Of a stretch of 38,157 bases of DNA, positions 10,056 to 35,404 are shown piece after piece (position 1 is the stretch's first letter; each line of letters opens with the position of its first letter). Both the position numbers and the translations under genes were made by a program. Origin of the DNA: Endomicrobiia bacterium (GTDB lineage Bacteria > Elusimicrobiota > Endomicrobiia > DTEH01); the NCBI GenBank assembly GCA_039630545.1, contig JBCNUU010000010.1, forward strand, positions 1 to 38,157. Reading direction: 5' to 3'. Under the pieces are notes generated by a model. The model saw nothing but the letters and a program-made list of their open reading frames with translations, made no database searches and was not told the origin of the DNA.

Positions 10056-10870
10056 TAGGAAACATTAAGAATAAACAAAAAATTTGATAAGTCGCCAAAT
10101 TTTGAAAAATATTTATAAGCATCTGCCTTATTTAAAGCAACTTCTATATATCCGAAAGAATTTATATAAGCAAGAAGTTCTTTTTCTTTGACTTGAGAAT
10201 AAAATTTATGCAGGCGAACTTTCCATGTTTTAGTGTTACATTTTACTTTAACAAAAAATTTACCATCTGGTTCTTTATTTATAAAATCTTTTTTTAAATT
10301 AGTTATAATATTTCCAAAAGAATCATGAAATAAGTATCTGCCTATATATTCTATACAATTATTTCTCTTAATAACTAAGGGATTTGCAATTTCAAAAATT
10401 TTTACATGTTGAATGTTAATCTTGCAGGCTATTTTTTTAATGTCAACTCCTTTTGAAACATAAGCTGCAACAGGAGACATTATATCTCTTCCATGAAAAG
10501 TATTGCTTATGGGCTTTAAAAAGTATTTATCATTGATAACATTATACACGTCTACTTTATTTTCTCTTATTACTTCAGACAAAACTCCATTATTGGGAGA
10601 AATAAAAATATAATCTGGTGTTCTTAATAAAATTATTTCTCTGTTGCTTCCTACTTCTGGGTCTACTACGCAGATAAATATGCTTCCTTTAGGAAAAAAC
10701 TTATAAGAACTTCCAAGAATAATCATGGCTTGCAGAATGTTTTGAGGTTGAATATTATGACACAAATCTAATATCTCAACGTCTGGGTTTATATTTTTTA
10801 TTACTCCTTTCATCTGACCTACATAAAAGTCATTGCCAAAATCTGTCAAAAGGACTATAAATTTTTTCAT
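10055..10870 (-). CDS. SAM hydroxide adenosyltransferase (DUF62; chlorinase/fluorinase superfamily)
   Basis: LLTDFG, VVDPEVGSNR, SNTFHGRD, DSFGNIITN, NSFGYIEVA; ATG at 10870 overlaps the queE stop. Confidence 0.9.
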   Translation of the reverse strand: MKKFIVLLTDFGNDFYVGQMKGVIKNINPDVEILDLCHNIQPQNILQAMIILGSSYKFFPKGSIFICVVDPEVGSNREIILLRTPDYIFISPNNGVLSEVIRENKVDVYNVINDKYFLKPISNTFHGRDIMSPVAAYVSKGVDIKKIACKINIQHVKIFEIANPLVIKRNNCIEYIGRYLFHDSFGNIITNLKKDFINKEPDGKFFVKVKCNTKTWKVRLHKFYSQVKEKELLAYINSFGYIEVALNKADAYKYFSKFGDLSNFLFILNVS

Positions 10871-11586
10871 TTTATCTTCCAAATTGTTTTATGAAGTTGT
10901 GGTATAATGTATATATTTTTAAGAATATTCTTTAAAGAAGCAAAGAGATTACATAAGTTTAAAAATAAACTTTTATTTTTTTTTCTTAACTCTTCAGTAA
11001 CAGGTTGTAAGACTATTTCTGAAAGATTTGTTTTTTTTATAATACTTTTAATTAATTTAACAGTTTTCAAAGAATAAATTGAACTACCCCCTACTACTAA
11101 CTTAACAAAAAATTTTTTCTTACTTTTTTTGCAAATATCAATACATTTTTTAAACTCTTGAAGAACATTTTTGTTTCTTTTATCATCATCAGGAATTTTT
11201 AAGTCCATTGATATTACATCTATGTATTTTATTATTTTTAATAAGGAATTTGCAACTGACGCATTTGTTTCAAGATATAATTTAAATTTAAACTTCTTTT
11301 TTAATTTATATAGTTGTTCTACTAATAATCCAATATTTGGCTGTATCAACGGTTCGCCTCCTGTTAAACTTATAAATTTTATATTTTTTTCTTTAAGTAA
11401 TTTTTTAATATCTATCAAAACTTTTCTTATATCTACCTTCCTGTTAGTATTCAATTTTGACAACTTTTCATCACAGTAATAACAGTCAAGATTGCAACCA
11501 AAAAATCTTATAAAAATTGTGGGTTCTCCTATATAAAAACCCTCAGCTTGGTAAGAAACAAATATTTCCTTTAAATTTAAATCCAT
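10867..11586 (-). CDS. queE: 7-carboxy-7-deazaguanine synthase (radical SAM)
   Basis: EIFVSYQAEG, FIRFFGCNLDCYYCD (CxxxCxxC), TGGEP, LETN, SMDLK, LQP, PQLHK. Confidence 0.93.
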   Translation of the reverse strand: MDLNLKEIFVSYQAEGFYIGEPTIFIRFFGCNLDCYYCDEKLSKLNTNRKVDIRKVLIDIKKLLKEKNIKFISLTGGEPLIQPNIGLLVEQLYKLKKKFKFKLYLETNASVANSLLKIIKYIDVISMDLKIPDDDKRNKNVLQEFKKCIDICKKSKKKFFVKLVVGGSSIYSLKTVKLIKSIIKKTNLSEIVLQPVTEELRKKNKSLFLNLCNLFASLKNILKNIYIIPQLHKTIWKIK

Positions 11587-11591
11587 AAAAT

Positions 11592-12263
11592 TTACAATAA
11601 AGGATCTTTTAAACCGAGCTTTTCAAAACCAGCTTTTCTATATTTACAAGCATCACATACTCCACAGGGCTTCTTATCCCCTTTATAACAACTCCAAGTA
11701 AGATGTAATGGTACATTTAATTTTACAGCTAGCTTTATTATTTGAGATTTATCATAATTTATAAAAGGAGCAATTATTTTTATTTTCTTCCCAGAAAGTG
11801 CTAATTTGGTTGAAACATTTACCATTTTTTGAAAAGAGTATATAAATTCTTTTCTACAATCAGGATAGCCTGAAAAATCTATTTGATGTGCTCCATAAAA
11901 AATATAATTTATCTTTGTTACCTCGGCTAATGAGACAGCGTAACTTAAAAATATCATATTTCTTGCAGGCACATAAGTAGATGGAATTTTGTTGTTTTCA
12001 AACTTCAGATTTTTATGAACGGGTATTTTTTGCTTTTTGTCTATTAAACTGCTTCCTTTCCATGGAAGGTCGATTTTTACGATGTAATACTTAAGATTTA
12101 AATTTTTTGCTATTTTTTTAGCATAGTTTATTTCTTTTTTATGTCTCTGTCCATAATCAAATATTATACATAAAGGTTCAAATTTTTTGTGTAAAAGGTA
12201 ATAAAGAGTGGTAGTAGAATCTAACCCACCAGAAAGTAAAATTATGCATTTTTTATTCTTCAT
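11592..12263 (-). CDS. queC: 7-cyano-7-deazaguanine synthase
   Basis: SGGLDS, FDYGQRH, TYVPARN, YPDCR, TWSCY..PCGVCDAC. Confidence 0.97.
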   Translation of the reverse strand: MKNKKCIILLSGGLDSTTTLYYLLHKKFEPLCIIFDYGQRHKKEINYAKKIAKNLNLKYYIVKIDLPWKGSSLIDKKQKIPVHKNLKFENNKIPSTYVPARNMIFLSYAVSLAEVTKINYIFYGAHQIDFSGYPDCRKEFIYSFQKMVNVSTKLALSGKKIKIIAPFINYDKSQIIKLAVKLNVPLHLTWSCYKGDKKPCGVCDACKYRKAGFEKLGLKDPLL

Positions 12264-12630
12264 AACTAGCTAGTTGATTTGGAGTTTCCCACACTATTAC
12301 TTTAATGTTATCTATATTTTTATATCTTTTAAGGAATTTTTTTACATTTTCATGAATATATCTTGCTATATTCTCAGCTGTTGGCTGAAAATTTTTAAAA
12401 TACTTTACTTCTTTGTTTAATAACTTATGATCAAGAGTATCTAACACCTTTTTTAAAATTTTTTTTAGTTTAGAAAAATCTATTACCATACCTAACCTAT
12501 TTAACTGTGTACTACTTACGTAAACTCCAACTTTCCAGTTATGGCCATGTAAATTCTCACATTTACCCTTGTACATTTTAAGATAATGTGCAGAAGAAAA
12601 TTGTGATTCTACATATACTTCGTATTTCAT
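12253..12630 (-). CDS. queD: 6-carboxy-5,6,7,8-tetrahydropterin synthase
   Basis: FSSAH, CENLHGHNW, GMVIDF, LDHKLLN, PTAENIA, WET. Confidence 0.95.
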   Translation of the reverse strand: MKYEVYVESQFSSAHYLKMYKGKCENLHGHNWKVGVYVSSTQLNRLGMVIDFSKLKKILKKVLDTLDHKLLNKEVKYFKNFQPTAENIARYIHENVKKFLKRYKNIDNIKVIVWETPNQLASYEE

Positions 12631-13502
12631 AAACATTTAGAGATATTTACTTTTTTGACATAGCTTATTTTTCTATTTAGTAATAACTCTCCAATGTTTG
12701 CAAAATTTTTCGGATCGTCTGTTACAAAAAATCTATAAACAGGCTGTTTTGTAGTAGTATTTAACAAATTCTTCTTTGTAAGAATTTCTTTTACTGCTAA
12801 AGCAGTTTCTATTGCAGAATCCACAACTTTCACATTTTGTCCTAAGATATCTTGAATTACTATTTTAATAGCTGGATAATGTGTGCAACCCAAAATTAAC
12901 ACATCTATGCCTTTTTCTTTTAATGGACTCAAATACTCTAAAGCAACCTGCCTTATTATATTTTCGTGGTTTATACTTTTAAGATAGTAATCTTTATCTT
13001 TATAATATAGTTTATCAATCCATCCTTCTTCTATCAACGGAACAAATAAAGGTGTTGGCTGTGCATATATTTTAACATTTTTAATATATTTTTTTATTTT
13101 TTTCTCATATGCTCTACTTTTAATTGTAGCTTTTGTGCCTATTATTCCAATTGTTTTGTTTTTTGTTAAATTCACTGCTGCACGAGCACCGTTAGTTACA
13201 ACATCTATAATTTCTATTCTTTTAAACATTTTTTTAAGAACAGGTATGGCATATGAAGACGATGTGTTACAGGCTACTACCAATAATTTTATTTTATTTT
13301 TTATTAAGAATTTAGCATTTTCTATAGAATATTTTATTATGGTATCCCTTGACTTATTGCCATAAGGAACTCTTGCTGTATCACCGAGGTATACTATATT
13401 TTCATTTGGCAAAAAATTAATAATCTCCTTTACAACAGTCAACCCACCTACTCCAGAATCAAATAAACCTATAGGTTTTTCTTTTTCACTGTTGATCTTC
13501 AT
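12627..13502 (-). CDS. murI: Glutamate racemase
   Basis: FDSGVGGLTV, DTARVPYG, VACNT, LGCTHYP. Confidence 0.97.
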   Translation of the reverse strand: MKINSEKEKPIGLFDSGVGGLTVVKEIINFLPNENIVYLGDTARVPYGNKSRDTIIKYSIENAKFLIKNKIKLLVVACNTSSSYAIPVLKKMFKRIEIIDVVTNGARAAVNLTKNKTIGIIGTKATIKSRAYEKKIKKYIKNVKIYAQPTPLFVPLIEEGWIDKLYYKDKDYYLKSINHENIIRQVALEYLSPLKEKGIDVLILGCTHYPAIKIVIQDILGQNVKVVDSAIETALAVKEILTKKNLLNTTTKQPVYRFFVTDDPKNFANIGELLLNRKISYVKKVNISKCL

Positions 13503-15027
13503 AATACTTTTTTATAGCAGAAAAAATTCCATCAGCAATCAATTGCTGAAAATCTCGTCTTAACAATTTTAATTCTTCGGTAGGGTTAGATATAAATCCT
13601 ACCTCTACTAAAATGGCAGGCATCTGGGCACCTCTAAGTACATAAAAGCCAGCCTGTTTTACACCACGGGGAATTTGTTGAGTCCTAGAAACACACTCGT
13701 TAACTACTAAACTACAAAGTTTAGATGATTCATTAATGAATTCATTTACTATCATGGACCATAAAAGCTTCTGTAATTTCGAAAGTTCTTCTGTCTTTTT
13801 TTCAAATTTTATTACTTCGTTTTCTAACTTTTCAGTAGCAACAGCATCCGGATCTGTTGCCCTTTCAGAAAGAAAATATGCTTCAAGCCCTCTATCTGTA
13901 CCTGATGGTTTTTCTGAGGCATTACAATGAATTGAAATAAATAAATCTGCATTATTGTCATTTGCAAATTTTGTGCGTTTTACTAAAGGAACAAAAATAT
14001 CATCATCTCTTGTAAGTAAAACAGTAAAACCATTCGCTTCAAGTTTTTCTTTTAAAATTTTAGAAATTGATAAATTAATATCCTTTTCTTTACTTCCATA
14101 TTTACCAACTGCTCCCGGATCTTCTCCACCATGTCCAGGATCAATTACAATAATCCTTTTTTTGATAAAATTGCTATCAACATTAACAGTTGGATATGTA
14201 TTATTTGGATCTGAAGAACTTAAATCATTTTTTTCTTCAGTAAAAATTTTTGCGTTTCTAGCTATTTCTGTTGTGTCTTCGAAATCTATCTTATATATTT
14301 CTAGAATTATTTTATCTTTAAACTCTTCTCTTTTTATTTCAACTCTTTGATTTGTATAAATTTCAACTACAGACTCTCCGTTTTGCTGGGATAATTTTAT
14401 TTTAGAAATTACACTTCCAAAAATCCTGTATTCTTTAGGCTGTAGCTTTTCATTAAAAAAGGTTAAAACAATCTTTTCATCTTCATATAAATATTCGTAT
14501 TGCAAAGCAGAAGTTGATTTTATTTCTATTAAAGCTTTGTCTTTAACAACATAATAACTTACTGATATAGTGTCTAACCAGTTTATTATTAATGTATTTT
14601 CATCTTTTCTAAACTGAGTATCAATATTTAAAATTTTAAGAAATACATTATTGTTAAGTATACTAATAGGCACCAAAACTCTGTTTTTGAAATTTATAAT
14701 CTCAGATGGTAAATAAAATTTTTGTTTTGACCATATGAAATAATTTTTGTTAATATAAAAGTATATTTTTTCTTTCCTGCAATTAAAACTTATGTATTTG
14801 CCTTTTGAATAATAAGTTAAAGTTGCTTTTAGAATTTTAGACAGATCTTTAATCGTGATATATTTATCTTCTTTACCGGCTATTTTATAAACAGGCAATT
14901 CATATATCTTTTCTACATTTACAATGACTTGTAAAGTGGTAAAAAAATCTACTCGAGAATAAGCATTTAATAAATTATTTAAAATTAAAAAAGTAATTCC
15001 TGCTACAAGTTTTTTAAATTTCTTCAT
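13486..15027 (-). CDS. N-acetylmuramoyl-L-alanine amidase (Amidase_3) with signal peptide and N-terminal AMIN/copper-amine-oxidase-like domains
   Basis: Signal-like MKKFKKLVAGITFLIL (ATG at 15027); IDPGHGGEDPGA, EKDINL, FISIHCNA, FYVLRGAQMPAILVEVGFISN. Confidence 0.92.
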   Translation of the reverse strand: MKKFKKLVAGITFLILNNLLNAYSRVDFFTTLQVIVNVEKIYELPVYKIAGKEDKYITIKDLSKILKATLTYYSKGKYISFNCRKEKIYFYINKNYFIWSKQKFYLPSEIINFKNRVLVPISILNNNVFLKILNIDTQFRKDENTLIINWLDTISVSYYVVKDKALIEIKSTSALQYEYLYEDEKIVLTFFNEKLQPKEYRIFGSVISKIKLSQQNGESVVEIYTNQRVEIKREEFKDKIILEIYKIDFEDTTEIARNAKIFTEEKNDLSSSDPNNTYPTVNVDSNFIKKRIIVIDPGHGGEDPGAVGKYGSKEKDINLSISKILKEKLEANGFTVLLTRDDDIFVPLVKRTKFANDNNADLFISIHCNASEKPSGTDRGLEAYFLSERATDPDAVATEKLENEVIKFEKKTEELSKLQKLLWSMIVNEFINESSKLCSLVVNECVSRTQQIPRGVKQAGFYVLRGAQMPAILVEVGFISNPTEELKLLRRDFQQLIADGIFSAIKKYYEDQQ

Positions 15028-15031
15028 ATGC

Positions 15032-16483
15032 TTAAGGAACAGGTAAATATATAACAAAAGTAGCGCCTTTACCTTTCCCTTCAGACATCACTGTAATTTT
15101 ACCTTTATGATGCAATATAATATCTCTAGTAATAGAAAGACCCATCCCAGCAAATTTGTCTTTACTTTTTGTAGTAAAAAATGGCTCAAAAATCAATTTA
15201 AAATTTTCTTTTTCTATTCCACAACCAGTATCTTGAACTTCTACAGCAACATATTTTTTTGAACTATTTGCTTCTTCATCTAATATTGTAGTATATGTTC
15301 TTATTTTAATAAAGTTATTTTTATTTGTTGTATTTTCTGAAATTGCCTGAATTGAATTATTTATTATATTAAGAAACGCCTGTTGTATATGAGGAACTGA
15401 AACTTTTAGTTTTGGTAATTTTTCATCTAACAAAGTTTGGATCTCTATATTATTTGCTTTAAGTTCACTATCAGCAATAAATAAAGTACTTTTTATTACA
15501 TCATTTATATCTACCTCACTATACTCATATTCTTTCTGTCTAGAAAATTTCAAAAGTGTAGCCACGCTTTCTTTGCATCTTAAAGCAGCTCTTTCTATTT
15601 TTTTAACATGTTCTATTAAAGGAGAATCTGCCGGAAGTTTCTCTAACAAAATCTGTGCTTGACCTAACACTCCAACTAAAGGATTATTAAGTTCATGTGC
15701 AATACCTCCTGCCAATTGCCCAATGTTAGATAATCTATCCATCTGTAAAATTTGTGTCTGTAATGTTTTTAAGCTATTTACCATATGATTAAAAGCTGAA
15801 ATCACTTCTGAAAATTCATCTTTAGTTGAAAAGTCTATAGTTGTATAATTACCTTTAGACAAACTATCAGCAAATCTCACTATGATCTTCAAGGGATTTA
15901 TCAGAGAGTTATATACTTTTACTCCGTAGTTGAAACTAATAAATAGAGAAAAACCTATTACAATAAATGAAATAACCCAGCTTAGAACATATAAAAATTG
16001 AATATTACTTTGTAAAGAATTTATCTGTTTTATGCACATACTTTTTTCTTTATTTATATTATTTGTAAATATTTCATATGCCGAAAGGAAATCATTCATT
16101 GCTATGTTTATTTTCTTAATTCTGTCTTTTTCATTAAATATCTTCTCAGCAATGTTTAACAAAACACTATATTCTTTTTCTACATTACTATAAGGCGTTT
16201 TTTGAATATAAAGATTTATAATTCCTTTAATATGAGTGGTTAATAATACAAAGTTTTCTTTTTCTTTTTCTTCTTGAAGCAATATATAATAATCAAAACG
16301 TAATTTTTGAAATCCAACGGTTTGGATAATACTTTCTAACAATCCCAACCTATCTCTCATTTCTACATATCTTATAAAATTTTTCTGTTGAAGATATAAA
16401 CTCAACACTAACCATAATATTAAAGTAAAAATTAATACTACAAAAACAAAAAATATCATTCTTAATTTCTGTCTTATAGTCAT
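15032..16483 (-). CDS. Membrane sensor histidine kinase (TM-periplasmic-TM-HAMP-HisKA-HATPase, NtrB-like)
   Basis: Two TM segments, HAMP (DEFSEVISAFNHM), H-box IAHELNNPL, N-box NIINNS, DTGCGI, FEPFFTTK, GMGLSI. Confidence 0.93.
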   Translation of the reverse strand: MTIRQKLRMIFFVFVVLIFTLILWLVLSLYLQQKNFIRYVEMRDRLGLLESIIQTVGFQKLRFDYYILLQEEKEKENFVLLTTHIKGIINLYIQKTPYSNVEKEYSVLLNIAEKIFNEKDRIKKINIAMNDFLSAYEIFTNNINKEKSMCIKQINSLQSNIQFLYVLSWVISFIVIGFSLFISFNYGVKVYNSLINPLKIIVRFADSLSKGNYTTIDFSTKDEFSEVISAFNHMVNSLKTLQTQILQMDRLSNIGQLAGGIAHELNNPLVGVLGQAQILLEKLPADSPLIEHVKKIERAALRCKESVATLLKFSRQKEYEYSEVDINDVIKSTLFIADSELKANNIEIQTLLDEKLPKLKVSVPHIQQAFLNIINNSIQAISENTTNKNNFIKIRTYTTILDEEANSSKKYVAVEVQDTGCGIEKENFKLIFEPFFTTKSKDKFAGMGLSITRDIILHHKGKITVMSEGKGKGATFVIYLPVP

Positions 16484-16519
16484 ATTTTTAAAAGTAAGGA
16501 GGGATTAATCTAAAAAAAT

Positions 16520-17236
16520 CTATGTTCTTGAAATTATAATCTCTATACGTCTATTTTTAGCTCTATTTTCTTCAGTATCATTGTTCACAACAGGTTTATG
16601 TTCTCCATAACCTGCTATAGCAAATCTTTCAGGTGGTAAGTTCTTAACTTCTGTAAAATACCTCATCACAGAAATTGCTCTTGCAATAGAAAGTTCCATA
16701 TTATTTGCATATTCTTTTGTTCTAATAGGAACATTATCCGTATGACCTTCTATTATTATTAAATTTGTTGAAGGAAGTGTAGATATCAACTCAGACAAAT
16801 CGTCTAAAACTTTTTTAGCGTTCTCATCTAAGTCTGCCCTACCTGAAGCAAACAATACTGCTCGCTCTGTAAACATAATCCGAATTTTCTGTGCAGTAAT
16901 GTTTACCTGTGCTGCTTCAGACAGCCCTCTTTTTTCCATGTATTCTTTAAGTTTCTGTGCAAATTCTGTCTCTTTTTCTCTTTTTTCAAGCTCTTTTTTT
17001 AACTTTAAATCTAAGTTAGCAACCTGAGCCTGTATTTTATTCATTAAACGTTCATAATTAATATCATTAGAAAAGTAAGTGTAAGCATATAAGACAAAGA
17101 AAAATATCATCAAAAATGTCATAAGATTCCCATAAGGTGTAACCCAACTTTCGGCATCTATCTTGTAATTATCTTCATTTCCTAAAATTTCTAATTTTGA
17201 TTTTATTGTTCTTTTCAGAGTAGTTTTATTATTCAT
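16520..17236 (-). CDS. motB: MotB/PomB-family stator subunit, second copy, with Asn at the conserved ion-binding Asp
   Basis: TM motif WVTPYGNLMTFLMIFFFVLY; OmpA-like PG-binding domain LFASGRA, EGHTDNVPI, NNMELSIARA, GYGEHKP, NRRIEI. Confidence 0.88.
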   Translation of the reverse strand: MNNKTTLKRTIKSKLEILGNEDNYKIDAESWVTPYGNLMTFLMIFFFVLYAYTYFSNDINYERLMNKIQAQVANLDLKLKKELEKREKETEFAQKLKEYMEKRGLSEAAQVNITAQKIRIMFTERAVLFASGRADLDENAKKVLDDLSELISTLPSTNLIIIEGHTDNVPIRTKEYANNMELSIARAISVMRYFTEVKNLPPERFAIAGYGEHKPVVNNDTEENRAKNRRIEIIISRT

Positions 17237-17240
17237 AAAA

Positions 17241-17908
17241 CTATTTTTTAATAATTTTTATCTCTATACGACGATTTTTTGCCTTATTTTCTTCTGTATC
17301 GTTTGGTGCCACCGGCCTATATTCACCATACCCAACACATGAGATTCTTTTTTCTTCTATGCCTTCTTTTATTAAATAATCCCTCACAGAAAAAGCCCTA
17401 GCAGCAGAAAGCTCCCAGTTAGACTTATACTTACCTCCGTAAATAGGGGTATTATCTGTGTGCCCTTCTACTACTATTTCACTAGTAATGGATTTTAAAC
17501 TTTCTGCCACTTCTTTAAGAACAACTAAAGCGGTATCTTTAAGTTCTGCTTTACCTATATCAAATAATACTGGAGAAGGTAAATTTATTACAATTTCTTC
17601 TTCTTTTACCTCTACAGTTGCGATATCTTTAAGCTTTTTTGACAGCTCATCTGTTTGTTCTTCCACTATCTGTTGCTGAGTAACTTCGATTTTCTTACCT
17701 AAATTTGCTAATGCTCGCATAAGCTGTTCTCTTTTTGAAGCACTTAGCCTTGTAAACGCAAATAATATCAAAAAAATAACGCCAGGTTAGTAGACATATC
17801 TGAATAAACTGTTCGCCAGATATTCAAACCTTGTTTTATTTCCTCACTTTCAGTAATTTCTTCTTGGATTTCTTGTTCAATTTCTTCTAATCTGTTTTTT
17901 TCTTCCAT
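17241..17908 (-). CDS. motB: MotB/PomB-family stator subunit, first copy; frameshifted by one missing base in the A7 run at 17770-17776
   Basis: ATG at 17908 reads MEEKNRLEEIEQEIQEEITESEEIKQGLNIWRTVYSDMSTNLALFF then stops. One extra T joins it to LILFAFTR... (ORF 17241-17771), giving 222 aa with EGHTDNTPI, SNWELSAARA, GYGEYRP, NRRIEI. Confidence 0.88.
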
Positions 17909-17910
17909 AA

Positions 17911-18675
17911 TTATTTTTTTCTCTGCCTCATTTTATGTGCTAAAAATGCCTGGAGTCTTCTGCTTACAACAGATGGTAGTTCACCTGCCTGAATTGCTAA
18001 AATACCTTCTATAGCAACCTCTTTAAGTAGTAACTTTTCCTCAGTATAAGCAGCAAGTTTATTAGCAATAGGCAGAAAAATAAAGTTTGTGCCAAATATT
18101 CCATAAAATGTAGTAATCACTGCAACAGCCATAGAAGAACCTATTGCTTCAGGATTTGTAAGATTTTTAAGTACACCCACTACACCTATCAGAGTACAAA
18201 GCAATCCAAATACTGGAGCATAAGCACCCATACCTCTAAAGACTGCATGAATCTGCTGGTGTCTTCTTCTTATAAATGTTATTTCTTTTATTAAGTTTTC
18301 TCTCACAATTTCTGGTGGAAGTCCATCTAATACCATTTGCAGTCCATCTACTAAAAAATGGTCTTTAATTTTAGGCAAACTATCTTGTAAAGAATCCAAT
18401 CCTCCTCGTTTCGCCTCTTCAGCTAAATCAACCAAAAGCCTTATGTACTTTTCTGCTGTCCATCTTTTTTGAGGAAAAAGTGCTAACATCATAGCTTTAG
18501 GAACTCTTTTAAGAATTCGATAAGGATAAGTAAGAAAAGTTGAAGCTATGGTCCCACCCAATACAAGAATTAAAGAAGGAAGGTTATAAATCATGTTTAC
18601 CAATCCACCAGCCTGAAGAGTATAATATACAGCCCAGATACCCAAACCCAACCCAATTACTGTCATCAGATCCAT
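17911..18675 (-). CDS. motA: MotA/PomA-family stator subunit
   Basis: MDLMTVIG, PSLILVLGGT, AKRGGLDSL, FLVDGLQMVLDG, APVFGLLCTLIG, MAVAVITTFYG, FLPIANKL, EGILAIQAGE; SD AAGGAG at 18686-18691. Confidence 0.94.
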   Translation of the reverse strand: MDLMTVIGLGLGIWAVYYTLQAGGLVNMIYNLPSLILVLGGTIASTFLTYPYRILKRVPKAMMLALFPQKRWTAEKYIRLLVDLAEEAKRGGLDSLQDSLPKIKDHFLVDGLQMVLDGLPPEIVRENLIKEITFIRRRHQQIHAVFRGMGAYAPVFGLLCTLIGVVGVLKNLTNPEAIGSSMAVAVITTFYGIFGTNFIFLPIANKLAAYTEEKLLLKEVAIEGILAIQAGELPSVVSRRLQAFLAHKMRQRKK

Positions 18676-18716
18676 AATTTTTACTCTCCTTTCTTAAATA
18701 TGTAAAAGAACAAAAA

Positions 18717-20230
18717 TTATTTCTTTTTTTCAATTACTTCTGGTTCTATAGTAAAACTTCTTTGTCTTTCTATCTGTTCTTTTATAAATTTACTTCTATC
18801 TATTGTAATTTCACCAGCATTTAATAAATCACGAATAGTTGCAATAATTTTTTCTGTTCAGTTTTTATAACTTTTTCTCCAACTTCACCTAAAAGGTCCA
18901 TCTGCTCTGCTAACATCGCACGCCCACCTTCTGTCAGACAATCCATAACTTTATTTTTTATTTCATCTGAAGCACCTTTTAAAGCTATTGCCAAAGAAAT
19001 TCCTCTCCTTTGGATTTCACGAATAATTTTTTGAAGTGTTGTTTTATCAAGAAATAAAATATCTTCAAATAAGAATATTTTCTCCCTCAATTTTTCAGCT
19101 AAAGATGGATTTTGAATAGACAAAGTTTGCAAGATATCCTCTTGAACATCTTTGTCTGCTTGATCTAATAAGGATAAAAAGTATTCTTCACCTCCTATAC
19201 AATAGTCAATTCTTGACTTTATATTATTTTCAATTTCCTGGACTTCTTTAGGATCTGGAAGTTTAACAGAAGCAAGTTCTAAAGCTACTTTTGCTTGAGT
19301 TTTTTGATCTAACATCATCATAAATTCTGAAACTAAATCAGGAGGTAAATAATTTAATACAAGTGCTATAGTGGAAGGTGCTTCGTCCTTTATAAGATAC
19401 CATAAATTTTTAAGATTAGACCTATTTATAAAATCAAAAAGTTTCCTCTGTGTTTTCTCTTCTTTTTTTCCACCCACAGTTAGTTCAAATGTACCTCCTC
19501 CAAAACCTCCTTGAGGAGCTGGCAAACCCGGAATCTCAACACCAGGTAATAAGCCAGTCTGAGTTTGTCCTGAAATTTCTGTTTTCTCAGTACTTCTAAG
19601 TCTAGCATCTGCTTCTATTCTTAACTGGACAGCTTTAACTATGGTTTTAAAGAAATGAGTAACAGGACCAAATAAAAATAAAGCAATTACAAAAATTATA
19701 AATGGAATATATAAATGAGGTAACATTTGTTCTAATATCATCTGCCATGTAGGTGTTTTTTGAAACTGAATCCTTGTTACATTAATAGTATCTCCACGCA
19801 TTGTGTTTAAACCTAAAAATGAAGGAAGTTCTGTTTTTATTCTATTTACTATATTTTCTGGTAAACTTACATCTACTGCTACATTGATAATAATTCTATC
19901 TATTACAAGTTGCATAGGTAAATTAGTAGCAGGATTTGTTATCGGAAGATATGAATATGTAACACCAGGTAGATATTCTTCTTCTCTAATATACAACCCA
20001 GGGTATTGCTGCTTACTTAAATCTATGTTGCTTGCAGGTGTCTGTTCTGGAGTTTTTATTTCTACAGTTACTAATACGACAAAATTTTTACTTCCTATTA
20101 TTTTTAAAACTATGTCCTCAACTTTCTGCTGGATTGATTTTTCAAGATTAATTTTTTCTTCAGTTAAAGTTAATGTAAAACTGTGGGATATTATTACCAA
20201 GAGAATTAATGTTAGTGCTATCTTTTTCAT
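18717..20230 (-). CDS. fliG: Fusion protein: signal peptide/anchor, FliF-like ring-building domain, TM helix, FliG middle and C-terminal domains; frameshifted by one missing base in the T6 run at 18848-18853
   Basis: FliF RBM3-like LEKSIQQKVEDIVLKIIGSKNFVVLVTV...IDRIIINVAVD...LGLNTMRGDTINV; TM at aa ~173-190; FliG-like FDF..EAPSTIALVLNYL, GG linker, IFLFEDI, LAIALKGAS. One extra A restores QKKIIATIRDLLNAGEI (FliG terminal helix) and extends to a stop at 18717 (504 aa). Confidence 0.85.
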
Positions 20231-20239
20231 GAAAACAAA

Positions 20240-21340
20240 TTATATAAATTCAACTAAAATTTGATTAGCTACAAATTTATATTTTGAGGGGATTATTAAA
20301 TAATTATCCTCTCTTTTCAACTTTCCTTCTTTGATTAACTTTTTTATTATTGTATTATACTTCCTTTGAATACTTTTATTTATTAACAACCCTTTAGTAG
20401 TTCTTAGTGCTAATATTATTTTTTCTTTTAGAGCAACTTCGTCAGGAATGTTTTCTACTTCATATTTAAAGTTCAGGTTTATATACTCCTCTACTTTCGA
20501 TACATTAGTTATGCGTTTTTTATTTAAAAAAGATACTGATGATGTACCTATCCCTATATATTCTTTCCTTCTCCAGTAATTCAGATTATGTAAACATTCA
20601 TATCCACTTTTAGCAAAGTTAGATATCTCATATATATTATAATTATTTTTTGATAAAAAATCAACTATTATTTCATACATCTTCGCTTGCAAATCTTCAT
20701 CAGGAAAATATTTACATTTATAAAAATAACTCCCTTCCTCTATAGTTAAAGCATAACAGGATACATGAGTTGGATTAAACTTTACTGTAAATTCTAAATC
20801 CTGTATTACATCTTTAATTTTTTGGCCAGGAAGTCCAAAAATAAGATCAAAGTTATAGTTACAAAATCCTAATTTTTCAAAAATTTTAACGGCACTTATT
20901 ACATTTTCTATTGTATGTATTCTACCAATGGATTTAAGAATTTTGTCATTAAAACTCTGAACACCTAAACTTAACCTTATATTTTTAGTTAACGAGAAAA
21001 ATAAATTTTTTATCTCTGCTAATTTAAATTCGGTTACACTTTCAGGATTAAATTCTATTGTTATTTCTTTTAGATTTTTAAAATCGAAATGTCTTATTAA
21101 GATATAAAATAAGTTTTCAATCTGCGTTTCATTTAATAAAGAAGGTGTACCGCCACCTATATAAAGAGTAACTATCTGTGGATTTGTTATTAAAAATTTA
21201 TTAAAAAAACAAATTATCTCTTTTTCTATCGAATTGATATAACTATCTAGAAGTTCTAAATTATTAATAGAATAAAAATCACAGTAATAACATTTAGACC
21301 TACAGAATGGAATGTGAACATATAGTCCGTACTTCTTCAT
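20240..21340 (-). CDS. hemW: Radical SAM heme chaperone HemW (HemN-like)
   Basis: LYVHIPFCRSKCYYCDF, GGGTPS, RLSLGVQSF, DLIFGLPGQ, YEISNFA, HNLNYW. Confidence 0.92.
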   Translation of the reverse strand: MKKYGLYVHIPFCRSKCYYCDFYSINNLELLDSYINSIEKEIICFFNKFLITNPQIVTLYIGGGTPSLLNETQIENLFYILIRHFDFKNLKEITIEFNPESVTEFKLAEIKNLFFSLTKNIRLSLGVQSFNDKILKSIGRIHTIENVISAVKIFEKLGFCNYNFDLIFGLPGQKIKDVIQDLEFTVKFNPTHVSCYALTIEEGSYFYKCKYFPDEDLQAKMYEIIVDFLSKNNYNIYEISNFAKSGYECLHNLNYWRRKEYIGIGTSSVSFLNKKRITNVSKVEEYINLNFKYEVENIPDEVALKEKIILALRTTKGLLINKSIQRKYNTIIKKLIKEGKLKREDNYLIIPSKYKFVANQILVEFI

Positions 21341-21861
21341 ATAGTAGTTTCTAAAATTTTTTTTAAATAATGTCTTACCTTTTCTATATCTACATCAGTA
21401 TTAATACAGGGTTTCTCTAATATAGTATTAGGGATTCCAATTATAGCATAATTAAAATTATCTCTTATCCCAGCAATCAATTCTTCTTCACATGCTACTG
21501 CTATTGTATAGTCCGGGTTTATGGCTTTTAAATATAATTTAGCTATTTGTGAGCCAGAAGCTATTTTTATCTTAACATCTATATTCTTAGAAAGATTCTC
21601 TTTTATCTTTATTATATCTTTTATCTTACACCTGCCACATAGTTTACAGTTATCTATGGAATTTACACAAGAAGAATTTTGCAAACATTTTGGAAGCAAA
21701 AATAAAATTTTTTTAAAAAATTTTTTTGAATGTTTAATTGATATTTTATTGTTAATTTCAATAAGCCAACATAATAACTTCTTTTTTTTAGAATAAGAAA
21801 CAAAATTAGTAAAAAATAGATAAATATTTAATACAATATAGTGAAAAATAAATTTTATCAT
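21337..21861 (-). CDS. DUF116 family Cys-rich protein
   Basis: LLPKCLQNSSC, CKLCGRCKI, AVACEEEL..GI, PCINT; commonly adjacent to fmt. Confidence 0.82.
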   Translation of the reverse strand: MIKFIFHYIVLNIYLFFTNFVSYSKKKKLLCWLIEINNKISIKHSKKFFKKILFLLPKCLQNSSCVNSIDNCKLCGRCKIKDIIKIKENLSKNIDVKIKIASGSQIAKLYLKAINPDYTIAVACEEELIAGIRDNFNYAIIGIPNTILEKPCINTDVDIEKVRHYLKKILETTI

Positions 21862-22811
21862 ATAAACCTGTCAAATTTTTTTACTCTATAACCGCATATA
21901 AACTGTGCAGCAGTTATAGGATTTTTGTTTTCTGGCTGGAGTTTTAATACCTTAAGAATGCTATTATTACCACATAATACTAATATAAAATCTTTAGCTA
22001 CCTCTATTATTGTACCACATGAAATTTTTTCATTTGAGTTAAACTTTTCCTCCCAAGGTATAGTTTGTAGTATTTTTACATTTAAAATTTTATTGTTAAA
22101 TTCCAACTTAGTTGAAGCTTTAGGCCAACTAACTAATGCTCTTACTATGTTATGAATCTTCCAGGCATCAAAATTCCAATTTATTATGCCATCACTTTTT
22201 TTGAGTAGAGGTGCATAAGTTGGATGTCCTTGTTGAGGAATTCTAATAATCTGGTTAGATAAAATTCTGATTATAGTTTCATATAATAACCCTTTAGCTT
22301 TCCTTATTAACCTTTCAGATAAACTATAGAAGTCATCTTGAATAGTTACGGTTTCTTGTTCTTGCAAAAATATATCACCGGTGTCCATGCCTTCATCTAA
22401 CCAAAATATCGTTACACCTGTTACACTATCTCCATTCATTAAACACCATTGAACGGGTGCCGCACCTCTATATTTAGGCAACAAGGAAAAATGTATATTT
22501 AACATTCCATATTTGTGAAGTTTTATTATTTTTTCTGGTATAATTTTACCATATGATACAACTATACTAAAATCAATATCTTTTATTATGCTTAAAATCT
22601 CATCTGATTCTAAACTTTCAGGAGTTAATACTTTAATATTATTTTTTTCTGATAAAATTTTTATTAAAGAGGGTTTAATCTTTAATCCCCTGCCAGAGGG
22701 TTTATCCGGTTGAGTTATTACATATGACACTTTTATATTTTTATTATTTATAAGATCTTCAAGAAAAGGCACAGAAAAGTAAGAAGAAGAACCCCAGAAA
22801 ATAACTTTCAT
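21858..22811 (-). CDS. fmt: Methionyl-tRNA formyltransferase
   Basis: TQPDKPSGRG, VVSYG, NIHFSLLPKYRGAAP, GMDTGD. Confidence 0.97.
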   Translation of the reverse strand: MKVIFWGSSSYFSVPFLEDLINNKNIKVSYVITQPDKPSGRGLKIKPSLIKILSEKNNIKVLTPESLESDEILSIIKDIDFSIVVSYGKIIPEKIIKLHKYGMLNIHFSLLPKYRGAAPVQWCLMNGDSVTGVTIFWLDEGMDTGDIFLQEQETVTIQDDFYSLSERLIRKAKGLLYETIIRILSNQIIRIPQQGHPTYAPLLKKSDGIINWNFDAWKIHNIVRALVSWPKASTKLEFNNKILNVKILQTIPWEEKFNSNEKISCGTIIEVAKDFILVLCGNNSILKVLKLQPENKNPITAAQFICGYRVKKFDRFI

Positions 22812-22813
22812 TT

Positions 22814-23323
22814 CTAAAATTTATGTTTACCTAAAAAATATAAAACATAAAATTTTAACCTTTTATCAGCAGACATTCTTTGAATAAAGCTTATACCATT
22901 GATGTGATCTATTTCATGTTGCAAAACTCTGCTTAATAAATTATTAACTATAATTTTATTTTTCTTACCATTTATATCAAAATATTCAACTTCTATAGTT
23001 TCTGCTCTTTTTATTCTTTCATAGTAACCCGGAAAAGAAAGACAACCTTCTTCAGCATCTATTTTTTTGCTGCTATATTGTAAAATTTTAGGATTAATGA
23101 GAGCAAATGACGTTGATTTTACATTTTTCTCTTTATAACTAATATCTACAACCACTATTTGTAAATCTATTCCAACTTGATTTGCCGCCAATCCTATACC
23201 GTTATATGCATACATCGTCTCAAACATATCTCTTACAATATGTTTCAATTCTGAATTAAATTTCTCTACAGGAGAAAGTTTTCTTTTTAAAAGTGGATGT
23301 GGATATTTTATAAGTGGTAACAT
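22814..23323 (-). CDS. def: Peptide deformylase
   Basis: GIGLAANQVG, EGCLS, QHEIDHING. Confidence 0.97.
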   Translation of the reverse strand: MLPLIKYPHPLLKRKLSPVEKFNSELKHIVRDMFETMYAYNGIGLAANQVGIDLQIVVVDISYKEKNVKSTSFALINPKILQYSSKKIDAEEGCLSFPGYYERIKRAETIEVEYFDINGKKNKIIVNNLLSRVLQHEIDHINGISFIQRMSADKRLKFYVLYFLGKHKF

Positions 23324-23327
23324 AAGT

Positions 23328-23645
23328 TTACTTTGTTGTTATTTCTTTAATCCATTTTAAATATTCTTTGTTCGCCTTATATATTTCAAAAGAAATAATT
23401 TCTGGAATTTTGTAAGGGTGTATTTTTTTGATCTCTTCAATAATTTTGTTTACTAATGTCTTTTTTGTTTTTATTAGGAGCAAATCCTCTTTATCTTTAC
23501 ATATTTTATTTTCCCACCAGTAAAAAGAATTCACATTTCTTACTCTATTAACACAAGCTACTAGTTTATTTTTTAAAATATAATTAATTATTTTATCCAC
23601 AGACTTTGCAGGAACTGAAGTTATCACCATAACAAAGTTTTTCAT
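23328..23645 (-). CDS. cutA: Divalent-cation tolerance protein CutA
   Basis: LVACVN, SFYWWENKI, IKT, HPYKIPEII, YLKWI; ATG at 23645 overlaps the upstream stop. Confidence 0.92.
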   Translation of the reverse strand: MKNFVMVITSVPAKSVDKIINYILKNKLVACVNRVRNVNSFYWWENKICKDKEDLLLIKTKKTLVNKIIEEIKKIHPYKIPEIISFEIYKANKEYLKWIKEITTK

Positions 23646-26161
23646 TTTTTTATCCACTCGTTCAGTTTAGTTATATACTCACTTAGCAATCTTTGAGTAT
23701 CTTTTTCTTTTTGAGTTTCTACATATATGTGTAAATATGCCTCATCTGGGTCAGGCAAAAATAATATCCAATCTTTATTGCCCATCCATATTTTTACACC
23801 ATCTATTAACTCAATTTTATAATTTTTGTGTTCTTCTATTAATTTTCTTATAACAAAACCTTTATTTTCCCAACTACAGGAAATTTTACTGTGGACTACA
23901 TTAAAGTCAGGTATTTCTCTTTTTATTCTGGAAATTTTAGTATCCTGTTTACTTAAAAGCTCTAAAATTTTTCCGATAGCAAACATTCCATCAAATGCTG
24001 GTTGGAACTCTGGAAAAATGTATCCTCCTAATCCATCTGCAATAAATTTTACATTTTCTTTTCTTGCTTCTTCTCTTAAATATCTCGGCAAAGTTTTACT
24101 CCAGACAACTTCAATATCTTTATGAAAAGAAGCAATAATTTCATTAACTACATTAGAAAAATATACTGGCAAAGCAATTTTAAATTTTTCTTCTTTAATG
24201 GAGGCTATTCTTAACAACAAAATTACCATTGATGCTAACTGATTGTCTAAAACTTTACCTTTGTCGTCTACTATATAAATTTTTTCAGCCCCGTTATCTA
24301 ACATGAATCCAACATCTGCATCTAAGGTAGTCACTATATTAGAAAGCTGCTCTAAGGCGTAGTTGAGTTCTTTTTCTGTCCTTGCAATTTTAGAACTATC
24401 TACAAAAGCATTTAAAGACACAACTTCAACACCTAGTTCACCTAAGATAGAAGGGAAAATATTTACTGCAGTAGAATATGAGTAATCTATCACAACTTTT
24501 AATCTTGCTTTTTTAATTGTCTCCACATCTAAAGATTTTAAATATCCGTCTCTATAATACTCATATGCCCTTGGAGGTAAGACAATTTCTCCTACTTCTT
24601 CTAAAGAAGCTCTAGGAAAATCTTCTCTTAAAAACAACTGTTCTATACTTTTTTCCTGTGCAACAGAAATATCATTTCCATTCCTATCAAAAAATCTTAT
24701 TTCAATAATATTTGGATTGTAAGGCGATAACCTCACATGTAAACCACCGTCTACATTTTCTTTACCAACTTCATATCTGACCACAGGAATCGGAGCTGCT
24801 CGCAAATCGCCTACTTTCACTCCTGCAGACAACAACCCAGAAATCATACTGCGTTTTATCATCCTGGAGGCTTTATGAGCATCTCTTGAAGTGATTACAT
24901 TTTTACCTCTGCCAATAAGACTGCCAAAAGCCGCTCCTAATTTGCATGCAAATTCAGGTGAAATTTCTGAATTTAAAAGTCCTGAAACCCCCATAGAACC
25001 AAAAAGAACTCTATTCCATTTTTCTTGCCATATTAAACTGGTAGATACCGTTGCTCCTTCCTCAACTATTTTTTTAGGCCATATTTTAATATTTGCTTTT
25101 ATGTGAGAATTATTTTGAATATCACACTCTTCTCCTATCACCGAATTAACTTCTACAACAACATTATCGCCTATCTTTGTATTATAGTGAATTATGCTTT
25201 CTTTAATAGAAGTATTTTTTCCTACATAAACATTATTCATTATTATACTTCCAAATATCACACAATCATTTTCTATCACACAATTATCACCTATTACTGA
25301 ACGGTTTATGACTACATTATTACCTATTTTAGTATTTTTCCCAATAACTACATATTTATCACAGACAAAATTCTCTCCTATGGTAGTGTTATCTCCTACA
25401 ACAAATTCAGTGTTGTTTATTTTAGTAATTCTTCCATCTATAGAAATATTAACCTTCTTCTCTAAAATATCATAATGACAAAATCTATACTCTTGAAGAG
25501 TACCTACATCTTTCCAATATCCATCTAGTACACATGCATATAAAGGAAGATTATTTTCTAAAAGTTTTGGAAATAAATCCTTTGAAAAATCAAAAAAGGT
25601 ATCTTTAGGAATATATTCAAAAATTTCTTTATTAAACATATAAATCCCAGTATTTACTTTATCAGAAAATACTTCACTCCATGTTGGTTTTTCTAAAAAC
25701 TTTTTTATTCTAAAATCTTCGTCATATATCACTATACCATAGTTTAAAGGATTTTCCACACTTGTAAGTACAATAGTTGCTAAAGAATTTTTATTTTCAT
25801 GAAATTCTATTAATTTTTTTAGATCTAAATCTGTAATGATATCAGCTGAAATTACCATAAATTTATCTTCCTTTACATAATCCCTTGCAAATCCAACAGC
25901 ACCACAGGTACCATAATCTCCATCAGGTAAGATATACCTTATTTTCACTCCAAAATTCTCGCCATTGCCAAAGTATTTAGTTATATATTCATGTTGATAA
26001 AACAGTAACACAATCAAGTCATCAATATTATATCTTTTAAGTAGTCTTATAACATGTTCCATCATAGGTTTGTTAACTACAGGTACCATTGGCTTAGGTA
26101 TAATACTAGTTAATGGCCTTAATCTTGTGCCAAATCCACCTGCCATTATTATCGCTTGCAT
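23642..26161 (-). CDS. Mannose-1-phosphate guanylyltransferase-like protein with left-handed beta-helix and phosphomannomutase-like domain
   Basis: AGGFGTRLRPLT..PKP, FLEKP, FDFSKDLFP, YWKDVG, hexapeptide repeats, then PGM/PMM fold (LFG..GVSG..N, AFDGM, DGVK); SD AAGGAG upstream. Confidence 0.9.
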   Translation of the reverse strand: MQAIIMAGGFGTRLRPLTSIIPKPMVPVVNKPMMEHVIRLLKRYNIDDLIVLLFYQHEYITKYFGNGENFGVKIRYILPDGDYGTCGAVGFARDYVKEDKFMVISADIITDLDLKKLIEFHENKNSLATIVLTSVENPLNYGIVIYDEDFRIKKFLEKPTWSEVFSDKVNTGIYMFNKEIFEYIPKDTFFDFSKDLFPKLLENNLPLYACVLDGYWKDVGTLQEYRFCHYDILEKKVNISIDGRITKINNTEFVVGDNTTIGENFVCDKYVVIGKNTKIGNNVVINRSVIGDNCVIENDCVIFGSIIMNNVYVGKNTSIKESIIHYNTKIGDNVVVEVNSVIGEECDIQNNSHIKANIKIWPKKIVEEGATVSTSLIWQEKWNRVLFGSMGVSGLLNSEISPEFACKLGAAFGSLIGRGKNVITSRDAHKASRMIKRSMISGLLSAGVKVGDLRAAPIPVVRYEVGKENVDGGLHVRLSPYNPNIIEIRFFDRNGNDISVAQEKSIEQLFLREDFPRASLEEVGEIVLPPRAYEYYRDGYLKSLDVETIKKARLKVVIDYSYSTAVNIFPSILGELGVEVVSLNAFVDSSKIARTEKELNYALEQLSNIVTTLDADVGFMLDNGAEKIYIVDDKGKVLDNQLASMVILLLRIASIKEEKFKIALPVYFSNVVNEIIASFHKDIEVVWSKTLPRYLREEARKENVKFIADGLGGYIFPEFQPAFDGMFAIGKILELLSKQDTKISRIKREIPDFNVVHSKISCSWENKGFVIRKLIEEHKNYKIELIDGVKIWMGNKDWILFLPDPDEAYLHIYVETQKEKDTQRLLSEYITKLNEWIKK

Positions 26162-34735: not shown

Positions 34736-35404
34736 TTAAACTTTGACTGATATACCAAAAACAAAATTATAAAACAACAAGTTTTTTAAATTTTTAAAAT
34801 CAATAAAAAACAAACTCAATCTTATGTCTGGCATCAACAAAGCTCTTATTCCAAAAGAATAAAAGTTTTTAACAGGATTTACATCTATTATATACTCTAT
34901 CCATTTGGTATATTTTGAAAAAGCAATACTATAAAAATACTTTTCTTTCCCTGTAAATGAAAGAAAAAAATTAACAACAATAGATGTAGAATAAAAATCT
35001 GATAAAATTTTTTCAATTACAATAAAAGCCTCTGTTCTATAAAACCCCAGTGATATGTCCACAGGGTTATTAGAAAATGAACTAATAATATGATATTTTA
35101 TATAAGGAGATATTAAAGTAATATTTTTTGCTATTTTTGTAATATCTTGTTGCTCATTTAAATTAAGCTTTATACCTATTTCAGAATTTTTTGTTACGCC
35201 ATAATTTAACGATACATCAAATCTATGCAACCCTAACAGGACTCTATTATGAGCAACAGTATACGAATTAATAGAACAAATCTTGCCGGTAGAACCTTCT
35301 AACCTTGCACACTCAGCAAAATATTTATATCTTTTTATTTCTTTAGATAAACAAAAAGATATAAAAATAAAAAAAAGTAGTACTCTCAAACTAAATTTTC
35401 TCAT
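34736..35404 (-). CDS. Hypothetical exported protein, possibly a small beta-barrel
   Basis: Signal-like N-terminus, beta-strand-like alternation, ends FGISVKV; tightly packed between neighbours. Confidence 0.6.
   Translation of the reverse strand: MRKFSLRVLLFFIFISFCLSKEIKRYKYFAECARLEGSTGKICSINSYTVAHNRVLLGLHRFDVSLNYGVTKNSEIGIKLNLNEQQDITKIAKNITLISPYIKYHIISSFSNNPVDISLGFYRTEAFIVIEKILSDFYSTSIVVNFFLSFTGKEKYFYSIAFSKYTKWIEYIIDVNPVKNFYSFGIRALLMPDIRLSLFFIDFKNLKNLLFYNFVFGISVKV

Follow-up and report, generated by a model that had tools for sequence, protein, structure and literature searches.

A FliF-FliG fusion encoded beside predicted flagellar-type stator genes in an Elusimicrobiota genome with no flagellar gene set found

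Four genes and their proteins

The window, a stretch of 38,157 bases that makes up the complete contig C2 of an Endomicrobiia genome (G000; 1.60 Mb in 82 contigs, 95.5% complete, about 28% G+C), carries on its minus strand, at 16520-20230, four adjacent genes for a fusion of FliF-like and FliG parts, a MotA and two MotB proteins, here MotB1 and MotB2 (Table 1). The runs that contain the window's sequence are three DNA runs from hot-spring metagenomes, all of one study, with no RNA run among them, and the names borne by close homologues point to Elusimicrobiota/Endomicrobia. The gaps within this cassette measure 4 to about 45 nucleotides (nt), its first gene lies 9 nt from the end of hemW, and no minus-strand terminator-like site was seen within it in a promoter and terminator scan of the window. 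The same scan gave 93 promoter-like sites with 83 expected, by which the start of an operon is not defined.

Table 1. Features discussed, by position (in the window unless a contig is named)
Feature	Position	Strand	Details
Rotor fusion gene, interrupted	18717..20230	-	called open reading frame (ORF) 20230-18821, 469 aa
MotA, predicted flagellar stator type, intact	17911..18675	-	254 aa; 95-96% identity to closest relatives
MotB1, interrupted	17241..17908	-	ATG at 17908; transmembrane (TM) helix with Asp (YSDM), OmpA-like peptidoglycan-binding domain
MotB2, intact	16520..17236	-	238 aa; MotB_plug and OmpA domain; Asn for channel Asp (YGNLM)
Sensor histidine kinase	15032..16483	-	2 TM helices, HAMP, HisKA, HATPase; 36 nt downstream of MotB2
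Nucleotidyltransferase-mutase fusion	23642-26161	-	839 aa
NADP-malic-enzyme-like gene	34736-36724	-	two abutting ORFs, 439 and 222 aa; junction 35404/35405
ORF without family match	31077-32363	-	428 aa
ORF without family match	4507-5247	-	246 aa
ORF without family match	34736-35404	-	222 aa
Giant and barrel-TPR genes	C12:170967-179711		orthologues of the partner genes
Second module, apparently intact	C12:50074-65569		
Second barrel-TPR gene and type B fusion gene	C12:54805-58287		within the second module
MotA-MotB pair	C34:12028-13542		283 and 217 aa; MotB with Asp
Barrel gene pairs without adjoining fusion	C77:2628-4042; C67:16937-18149; C6:12205-17878		
CooS/CooC-like genes	C45:42503-44039		
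MotB genes of locus L037	G007:C3, 13560-14931		

The product of the fusion gene begins with a hydrophobic helix, followed by a periplasmic domain resembling RBM3, or S-ring part, of FliF, a TM helix, a Gly/Pro-rich linker, and the middle and C-terminal domains of FliG. Pfam matches to the window's protein comprise FliG_M (PF14841, E 7.5e-15) and FliG_C (PF01706, E 3.8e-23), with YscJ_FliF_C at 22.2 bits, under its cut-off of 23.8. A full-length orthologue that is 86% identical to the window's fusion, P0002, was used for the model and the structure searches, and its residues 266-483 match the middle and C domains of T. maritima FliG (1lkv) at E 1.4e-32. With residues 1-200 of the fusion as query, only 80 proteins out of 1.84 billion representatives were returned at E <= 0.001. 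Among the 75 of these relatives that were scanned, FliG_M is present in 64, FliG_C in 59 and YscJ_FliF_C (PF08345) in 51, the best match of the last being at E 6.6e-12, and PF01514 is listed for none.

The AlphaFold model of P0002 has a mean predicted local distance difference test score (pLDDT) of 66, with 70-86 for the domains, and places in order a helix, a strand, a disordered insert, two strands, a helix, a strand, the TM helix, a disordered linker and FliG_MC. Residues 18-160 of the model superpose on the FliF RBM3/S-ring fold with Z 12.8 and 2.1 A over 101 residues (VIA-align); such superpositions range from Z 11.2 to 12.8 in 15 entries, Salmonella FliF 228-438 being at 11.2-12.4, and the rows for unrelated OsmC/Ohr proteins lie at Z 9.2 or lower. 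FliG_C of the model superposes with Z 15.0 and 1.5 A over 89 of 89 residues, with Z 14.2 when set on FliG_C in a complex of MotAB with FliG (chain 8ucs_H), and FliG_M with Z 11.7-12.4. The first gene of the cassette is a fusion in which FliF, by its RBM3 only, is joined through a TM helix to the middle and C domains of FliG, without RBM1-2 of the former and FliG_N of the latter. Of the parts that together make a full FliF MS-ring protein (RBM1-2, PF01514 and RBM3) just the RBM3-like one was found. A Gly-Gly hinge, an FxF motif, the lysine of an ALK motif and the glutamate of an LAE motif are invariant or nearly so across the fusion family, and this includes a paralogue in the same genome. FliG_C occurs twice in G000, in the window and in that paralogue, a 631-aa protein encoded on contig C12 that has the architecture of the fusion plus a C-terminal TPR tail ('type B').

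MotA is, as judged from its sequence, a flagellar-type stator subunit. Its best solved relatives are flagellar MotA/PomA stators in 10 of 10 matches (E 4e-43 to 1.7e-19), its best NCBIfam models are MotP, MotA and PomA (E 1e-54 to 1e-60, all under the curated cut-offs), and the R/K of the AKRGG loop and the prolines of TM3 and TM4 are retained in all eight aligned sequences. What characterizes a B subunit, namely plug, TM Asp and OmpA-like domain, is present, split over MotB1, which is frameshifted, and MotB2, which bears Asn and whose MotB_plug scores 29 bits with a cut-off of 24. In each of the eight related loci that hold it MotB1 is intact, at 216-231 aa, and its channel Asp is present in all orthologues; the MotB2 proteins of loci L030, L032, L035, L036, L039 and L041 have the Asp as well. 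As a single A gene is accompanied by two unlike B genes, MotB1 and MotB2 may form a heteromeric pair. At one type B-like locus, L037, the pattern is the reverse of that in the window clade, the first MotB paralogue having Gly for the Asp and the second keeping it. MotA_ExbB is represented by four copies in G000: that of the window, a flagellar-type MotA-MotB pair on C34, an ExbB-ExbD-ExbD set on C6 and a 209-aa open frame on C12.

Family searches of the whole genome, run with control genomes that were positive in numbers of four to eight, gave no match in G000 for FlhA (FHIPEP, PF00771) or FliP (PF00813), with controls positive in four each, nor for YscJ_FliF (PF01514; positive in four) or CheW (PF01584; positive in eight). 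Flg_bb_rod (PF00460) and Flagellin_N (PF00669) were likewise without a match, controls being positive, as was FliMN_C (PF01052), again with a positive control, FliM's own family, PF02154, not having been searched. The cassette is not a flagellum, because FlhA, FliP, rod, flagellin, FliM/N, full FliF and CheW were not found in the genome; five defining features of a flagellum were looked for and all are wanting.

A first-pass annotation had proposed a four-gene rotary motor cassette, with a FliF-FliG fusion and a complete stator set, outside any flagellar context. The domain, structure and genome searches bear out such a fusion, its flagellar-type stator partners and the lack of flagellar genes around them: no flagellar gene set came to light elsewhere, and both a FliG fold and the FliF ring-building fold are predicted. 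The genes are indeed four, adjacent and co-directional, but those of the fusion and MotB1 are interrupted; the stator set does comprise MotA and two MotB genes, though one of these is the frameshifted MotB1; and the term fusion is apt for RBM3 and FliG M plus C, but covers neither a PF01514 part nor FliG_N. That annotation knew of no characterization of the system, and in the literature searched, where the only fusions are engineered ones, no description of a natural flagellum-free FliF-FliG fusion was found. The passages searched in a paper on MotAB evolution (PMC12505986) mention neither Elusimicrobia nor a fusion, and the available excerpts of PMC13277936, PMC12204202 and bioRxiv 10.1101/765248 contain no mention of a flagellum-free one.

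Distribution, constraint and partner genes

Searched with P0002, a sample of 301 Elusimicrobiota genomes from 98 genera has relatives of the fusion in 109 genomes and 68 genera, with 98 listed rows at E < 1e-20. Two families that contribute 177 of the 301 genomes account for 2 matches, the proportion in the remaining families being 106/123. FlhA is found in 6 of the genomes (5 of the genera). Of the five FlhA-positive genomes examined, G064, G242 and G119 have fusions along with canonical FliG, and G062 and G170 have canonical FliG only. A maximum-likelihood tree built from 51 rows of the FliG_MC region has one branch, with support of 97/94, that separates 26 fusions from 25 canonical FliG sequences, three of the latter being from flagellated Elusimicrobiota, and the TPR-tailed type B fusions form a clade within the fusions (97/97). 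The tree is unrooted and its canonical sample narrow, and so whether the fusions are ancestral or derived is not judged from it. Relative to the nearest relatives, L007/L008, and with synonymous divergence near saturation, the ratio of nonsynonymous to synonymous substitution rates (dN/dS) is 0.025 for MotA, 0.028 for MotB1 and 0.071 for the fusion, six neighboring housekeeping genes having 0.04-0.44. The cassette is thus conserved across Elusimicrobiota, and the dN/dS values point to strong constraint. Look-alike clusters in Cloacimonadota and Bdellovibrionota, with scores < 0.9, are leads only.

All seven loci with enough flank retain the four-gene set, and in more distant loci two further genes lie upstream, one for a protein of 1810-2075 aa, with BNR/sortilin/fn3 repeats and an end resembling the C-terminal domain (CTD) of secreted proteins, and one for a protein of 527-555 aa. 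Linkage was counted, with hidden Markov models of our own, in 20 further loci from 20 genomes, three of which are on the same contigs as L013-L015 (L031, for instance, on that of L015). The cluster includes a homologue of the 527-555-aa protein, which is a barrel with a TPR tail, in 19/20 loci and has it directly upstream of the fusion in 18/20, MotA is in the stretch in 15/20, and a protein of at least 1500 aa adjoins the barrel gene in 10/20. All-against-all clustering of 21 loci yields the fusion in 21, barrel-TPR in 20, MotA and MotB in 16 each, the giant protein in 13 and a kinase like that of the window in 6. The model of the barrel-TPR protein (pLDDT 84.7) has a 14-stranded barrel followed by 12 helices; its top two Foldseek matches are 8gl6_F and 6h3i_F, chain F of the type IX translocon, ahead of FadL/TodX, and the family profile matches PorV 6h3i_F at E 2.8e-10. 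By profile and model, this partner family, encoded outside the window, is one of PorV-type outer-membrane barrels. The ends of the giant proteins match Por_Secre_tail, CHU_C and FlgD_ig at 18.3-26.1 bits, all under the Pfam cut-offs (27).

The orthologous giant and barrel-TPR genes of G000 are on C12, another contig than the cassette. C12 also has a second, apparently intact, module with genes for a protein of 170 aa whose end looks like a CTD, for a barrel-TPR protein of 524 aa that precedes the 631-aa type B fusion with its cytoplasmic TPR tail, and then for two coiled-coil proteins, of 1603 and 810 aa. The MotA-MotB pair on C34, which adjoins an extracytoplasmic function (ECF) sigma/anti-sigma pair, is likely to be the stator of this second module. 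More pairs of a protein with a CTD-like end and a PorV/FadL-like barrel, without an adjoining fusion gene, are on C77, C67 and C6, those on C6 being next to the ExbB-ExbD-ExbD set.

Two other ideas put forward at first sight of the window fare less well. A cassette called self-contained has a fusion gene that is almost always preceded by barrel-TPR and often by the giant, both of these being on C12 in G000. A reduced flagellar motor is unlikely in light of the supported branch that sets the fusions apart from canonical FliG and of their coexistence with FliG/FlhA in three genomes.

The cassette itself is embedded in a long co-directional run of housekeeping genes, with a GlmU/GlmM-like fusion, cutA, def, fmt, DUF116 and hemW on its upstream side and, on its downstream side, the histidine kinase, an AmiC-like amidase, murI, que genes, murC, murB, ddl, ftsA, ftsZ and pilT. 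PBP1A is also among its cell-wall neighbors. Amidase, murI, mur/fts and PBP1A suggested a role in cell division or peptidoglycan, which was rejected as the leading explanation because that synteny is present only in the closest relatives, L008, L009, L011 and L012. The sensor kinase is a probable accessory of the cassette, with homologues in 6 of 21 related loci, to which the window adds a seventh. An Rfam scan of the window found two tRNAs only and no riboswitch; RF01051 had no match in the whole genome, with the control genomes silent too.

Among the other genes of the window, the 839-aa protein is a sugar-1-phosphate nucleotidyltransferase (GlmU/mannose-1-P guanylyltransferase-like) fused to a phosphoglucosamine/phosphomanno-mutase-like part, with 79-90% identity in relatives and a dN/dS of 0.042, the lowest of the housekeeping genes compared. 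Three ORFs are without a Pfam or NCBIfam match at the thresholds used, and that of 246 aa, between ddl and ftsA, may be a divergent FtsQ, a guess from its position.

Lesions in the module

Comparison of window positions 10870-26161 with the syntenic genes of L008, L009, L011 and L012 reveals frame changes only in the fusion and MotB1. In the fusion, a run of A7 in relatives is A6 at 18848-18853, a one-base deletion that puts about 45 C-terminal residues out of frame; the restored frame reads to 18720, and the true stop would be at 18717-18719. In MotB1, T8 in L007-L011 is T7 at 17770-17776, again a one-base deletion. On C12, the barrel-TPR gene of the same genome has a frameshift near 179217 and the giant gene one in-frame stop near 176139, within a 1,820-column alignment to the L010 giant. 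In G135, to which L012 belongs, an independent CAA>TAA change lies in the torque-helix region of the fusion, downstream of which the frame is still conserved, and the barrel-TPR gene is frameshifted; the giant gene is intact.

When the state of the type A fusion is set against that of the type A barrel in 10 genomes of the family, which are kin, so that the counts do not amount to a statistical test, both genes are intact in four (G185, G057, G067 and G093), both broken, by different mutations, in two (G000 and G135) and both absent in three (G073, G201 and G069). The single discordant genome, G165, is 88% complete. Such co-decay in G000 and G135 argues that the unlinked cassette and barrel/giant genes serve one function, and amounts to evidence of a genetic style obtained independently of culture. 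The module is probably inactive or switched off in G000, and the lesions suggest that it is being lost in this lineage. Our own reading of these sequences is that the entire module may have been inactivated or switched off recently in some hot-spring strains.

Split or decayed genes are also seen outside the module. The NADP-malic-enzyme-like gene of the window is a single 668-aa ORF in G135, its division in G000 reflecting an in-frame stop or a natural split. On C45, the orthologues of a 634-aa CO-dehydrogenase-like protein and of a 251-284-aa ATPase are full of stops and frame changes and look like decayed pseudogenes; the names CooS and CooC used for them are from our own reading of the sequences.

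Interpretation and known systems

The explanation preferred here, to which we give a probability of about 60%, is that the four genes specify the part of a flagellar-type motor that generates torque, working here independently of a flagellum and serving a PorV-type carrier and its adhesin. The fusion would form an inner-membrane ring by way of its periplasmic domain resembling FliF RBM3, a domain that builds rings in every solved relative listed, and the ring would display one FliG middle/C domain per subunit toward the cytoplasm. MotA pentamers around the MotB1/MotB2 pair, anchored to peptidoglycan by the OmpA-like domains, would let ions flow through the Asp of MotB1, push on FliG_C and so turn the ring. 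The load would be the outer-membrane PorV-family barrel, with its periplasmic TPR tail, and the neighboring giant CTD-bearing surface protein, rather than a rod or filament. The ring might serve as a pinion for these carriers, moving, tensioning or loading them, in a role akin to gliding or in adhesin handling, and coupling to PorV-type carriers could be via the periplasmic face of the ring or, in type B, via the cytoplasmic TPR and coiled coils.

Several points weigh against this reading. Along the torque helix, K, R, D-E and R of T. maritima correspond to K, G, E-Q and G in the fusions, so that several of the charges are not retained, at positions regarded as the stator contacts. The periplasmic insert that would correspond to the FliF collar is short and has pLDDT < 50 in the model. 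MotB2 has Asn at the channel Asp in the window clade, L010, L031 and L033. In the genus of G000, cassette and barrel are unlinked, and the cassette has genes for the cell wall and for division as neighbors. What the data show are the domains, the lack of flagellar genes, conservation, gene linkage and co-decay; that a ring forms and turns, that the two MotB proteins pair and that the ring is physically coupled to the barrel we infer from these. As to the lesions, the homopolymer frameshifts could be assembly errors or population variants, the six short contig pieces of one run that were placed covering neither site, and related genomes are not independent samples. Of 133 distinct G000 genes compared with some 250 kb of three relatives, 6 were flagged, MotB1 among them, the others being CooS, CooC, the malic-enzyme gene, C12:89386 and C4:12595, the last flag probably being an artefact at the N terminus. 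The four lesions among the six module genes are far above this background, though the giant gene is a large target. (The E. coli numbering of the torque-helix positions follows the parts of PMC12505986 that treat them.)

Seen from a different angle, all four proteins are built of flagellar domains and two of the genes are broken in G000, as might befit a degenerating flagellar remnant, or a flagellar motor whose remaining genes are elsewhere. This we consider highly improbable. In addition to the lack in a 95.5%-complete genome of any FlhA, FliP, rod, flagellin, FliM/N, PF01514 FliF or CheW match, the architecture of the fusion is in 68/98 genera and FlhA in 5/98, dN/dS is 0.025-0.07, the fusions stand apart, by a supported branch, from canonical FliG, including that of flagellated Elusimicrobiota, and they coexist with canonical FliG/FlhA in G064, G242 and G119. 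Another alternative is a switch or sensor in place of a motor that turns continuously: MotAB acting on membrane-anchored FliG would change the conformation of the periplasmic domain and so gate, tension or report on the PorV-carrier/adhesin, with the histidine kinase as read-out. The position of a sensor kinase after the cassette, with homologues in 6 of 21 other loci compared, the lack of the channel Asp in one MotB paralogue in several lineages and the partial retention of the torque-helix charges would all suit it. It is unlikely, given that the RBM3 fold is ring-forming in every solved relative listed, that FliG_M and FliG_C are invariant, as are the Gly-Gly hinge and the FxF motif, that the kinase is missing from most loci compared and that the Rfam scan saw no riboswitch in the window.

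The partner barrel, as a PorV homologue, draws attention to type IX secretion, and the cassette might replace GldLM/PorLM as an energizer that powers export or outer-membrane attachment of CTD-bearing giants via the PorV-like barrel, and not movement. The Por_Secre_tail/CHU_C/FlgD_ig-like ends of the giants, albeit below Pfam cut-offs, and the several pairs of CTD and barrel genes in G000 are in keeping with this, and neither SprA_N (PF14349) nor GldM (PF12081) has a match in the genome. However, no control genome was positive for the former and just one, only below cut-off, for the latter, by which absence of SprA and GldM is not established; no translocon candidate was identified in G000, and its other CTD/barrel pairs are without an adjoining fusion gene. 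In GldL5M2, GldM spans the periplasm, and a peptidoglycan-anchored stator acting on a cytoplasmic FliG ring is unlike that geometry. We regard this alternative as quite unlikely.

Returning to the motor without a flagellum, a bolder form of it is offered tentatively, and we rate it as doubtful: a new envelope machine of Elusimicrobiota in which a FliF-FliG ring turned by MotAB drives PorV-type carriers of giant adhesins, a new kind of engine of surface motility or adhesin handling. It would be at once a minimal rotor that occurs in nature and a lineage sister to the flagellar rotor, with a bearing on the origin of the flagellar motor. If so, its repeated coordinated inactivation in hot-spring strains would be a natural instance of the loss or switching-off of a costly surface organelle. 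Should fusion and stator be a working pair, they would be the smallest natural flagellar torque generator, with a single rotor protein next to one MotA and two MotB, and would lend themselves to structural and single-molecule studies; they would also be a case of parts of the flagellar motor put to work on another load, here a PorV-type carrier and its giant surface protein, and provide an outgroup-like relative for the evolution of the core of MS-ring, FliG and stator. New here are the evidence from coordinated decay, the profile at the level of the family, the tree that includes the phylum's own flagellar FliG, and dN/dS.

Among systems that are not flagellar, Bacteroidota gliding and type IX secretion (GldLM, PorV, PorP/SprF, SprB-type adhesins) offer a functional analogy, in that genes for what may be an ion-driven motor of 5:2 type adjoin those for a PorV barrel and a giant protein. 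The motor would here be MotAB with a FliG ring, not GldLM, and the barrel has a C-terminal TPR extension. The Agl-Glt gliding motor of Myxococcus has AglR with two B-type subunits, AglQ and AglS, and resembles the cassette in its one A gene with two different B genes and in being a Mot/Tol-like motor for a non-flagellar surface process. AglRQS is of the TolQR/ExbBD-like group and is not known to use FliG, nor is any other characterized non-flagellar system, none having turned up in the literature searched. The cassette, by contrast, encodes a flagellar-type MotA beside a FliG-bearing protein. AglRS is named among non-flagellar homologues in the relevant passages of PMC12505986.

Engineered fusions of Salmonella and Vibrio FliF and FliG form MS/S-rings, according to the available parts of PMC10941966 and PMC11481574, and share with the natural one the joining of FliF to FliG in a single chain; the matches of the fusion, by sequence as well as by fold, include an entry of this kind, 8z4d_1 ('Flagellar M-ring protein, Flagellar motor switch protein FliG'). 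Those are laboratory constructs of full-length FliF and FliG in a complete flagellum, whereas the natural fusion is much shorter (about 505 aa) and has neither FliF RBM1-2 nor FliG_N. The cassette is also close in its parts to the core of the flagellar motor (FliF, FliG and MotA5B2/PomA5B2), with FliG M plus C, the FliF RBM3 fold, a MotA of probable flagellar type, whose best matches are PomA, MotP and MotA, relatives with a four-helix cytoplasmic domain, and MotB with plug and OmpA-like domain. It differs in that no FliF RBM1-2, FliG_N, FliM/FliN, export gate, rod, hook or filament was found in the genome, in having two MotB paralogues, one without the Asp, in bringing FliF and FliG together in one polypeptide, and in the partner that it would serve, a PorV-type barrel with a giant surface protein.

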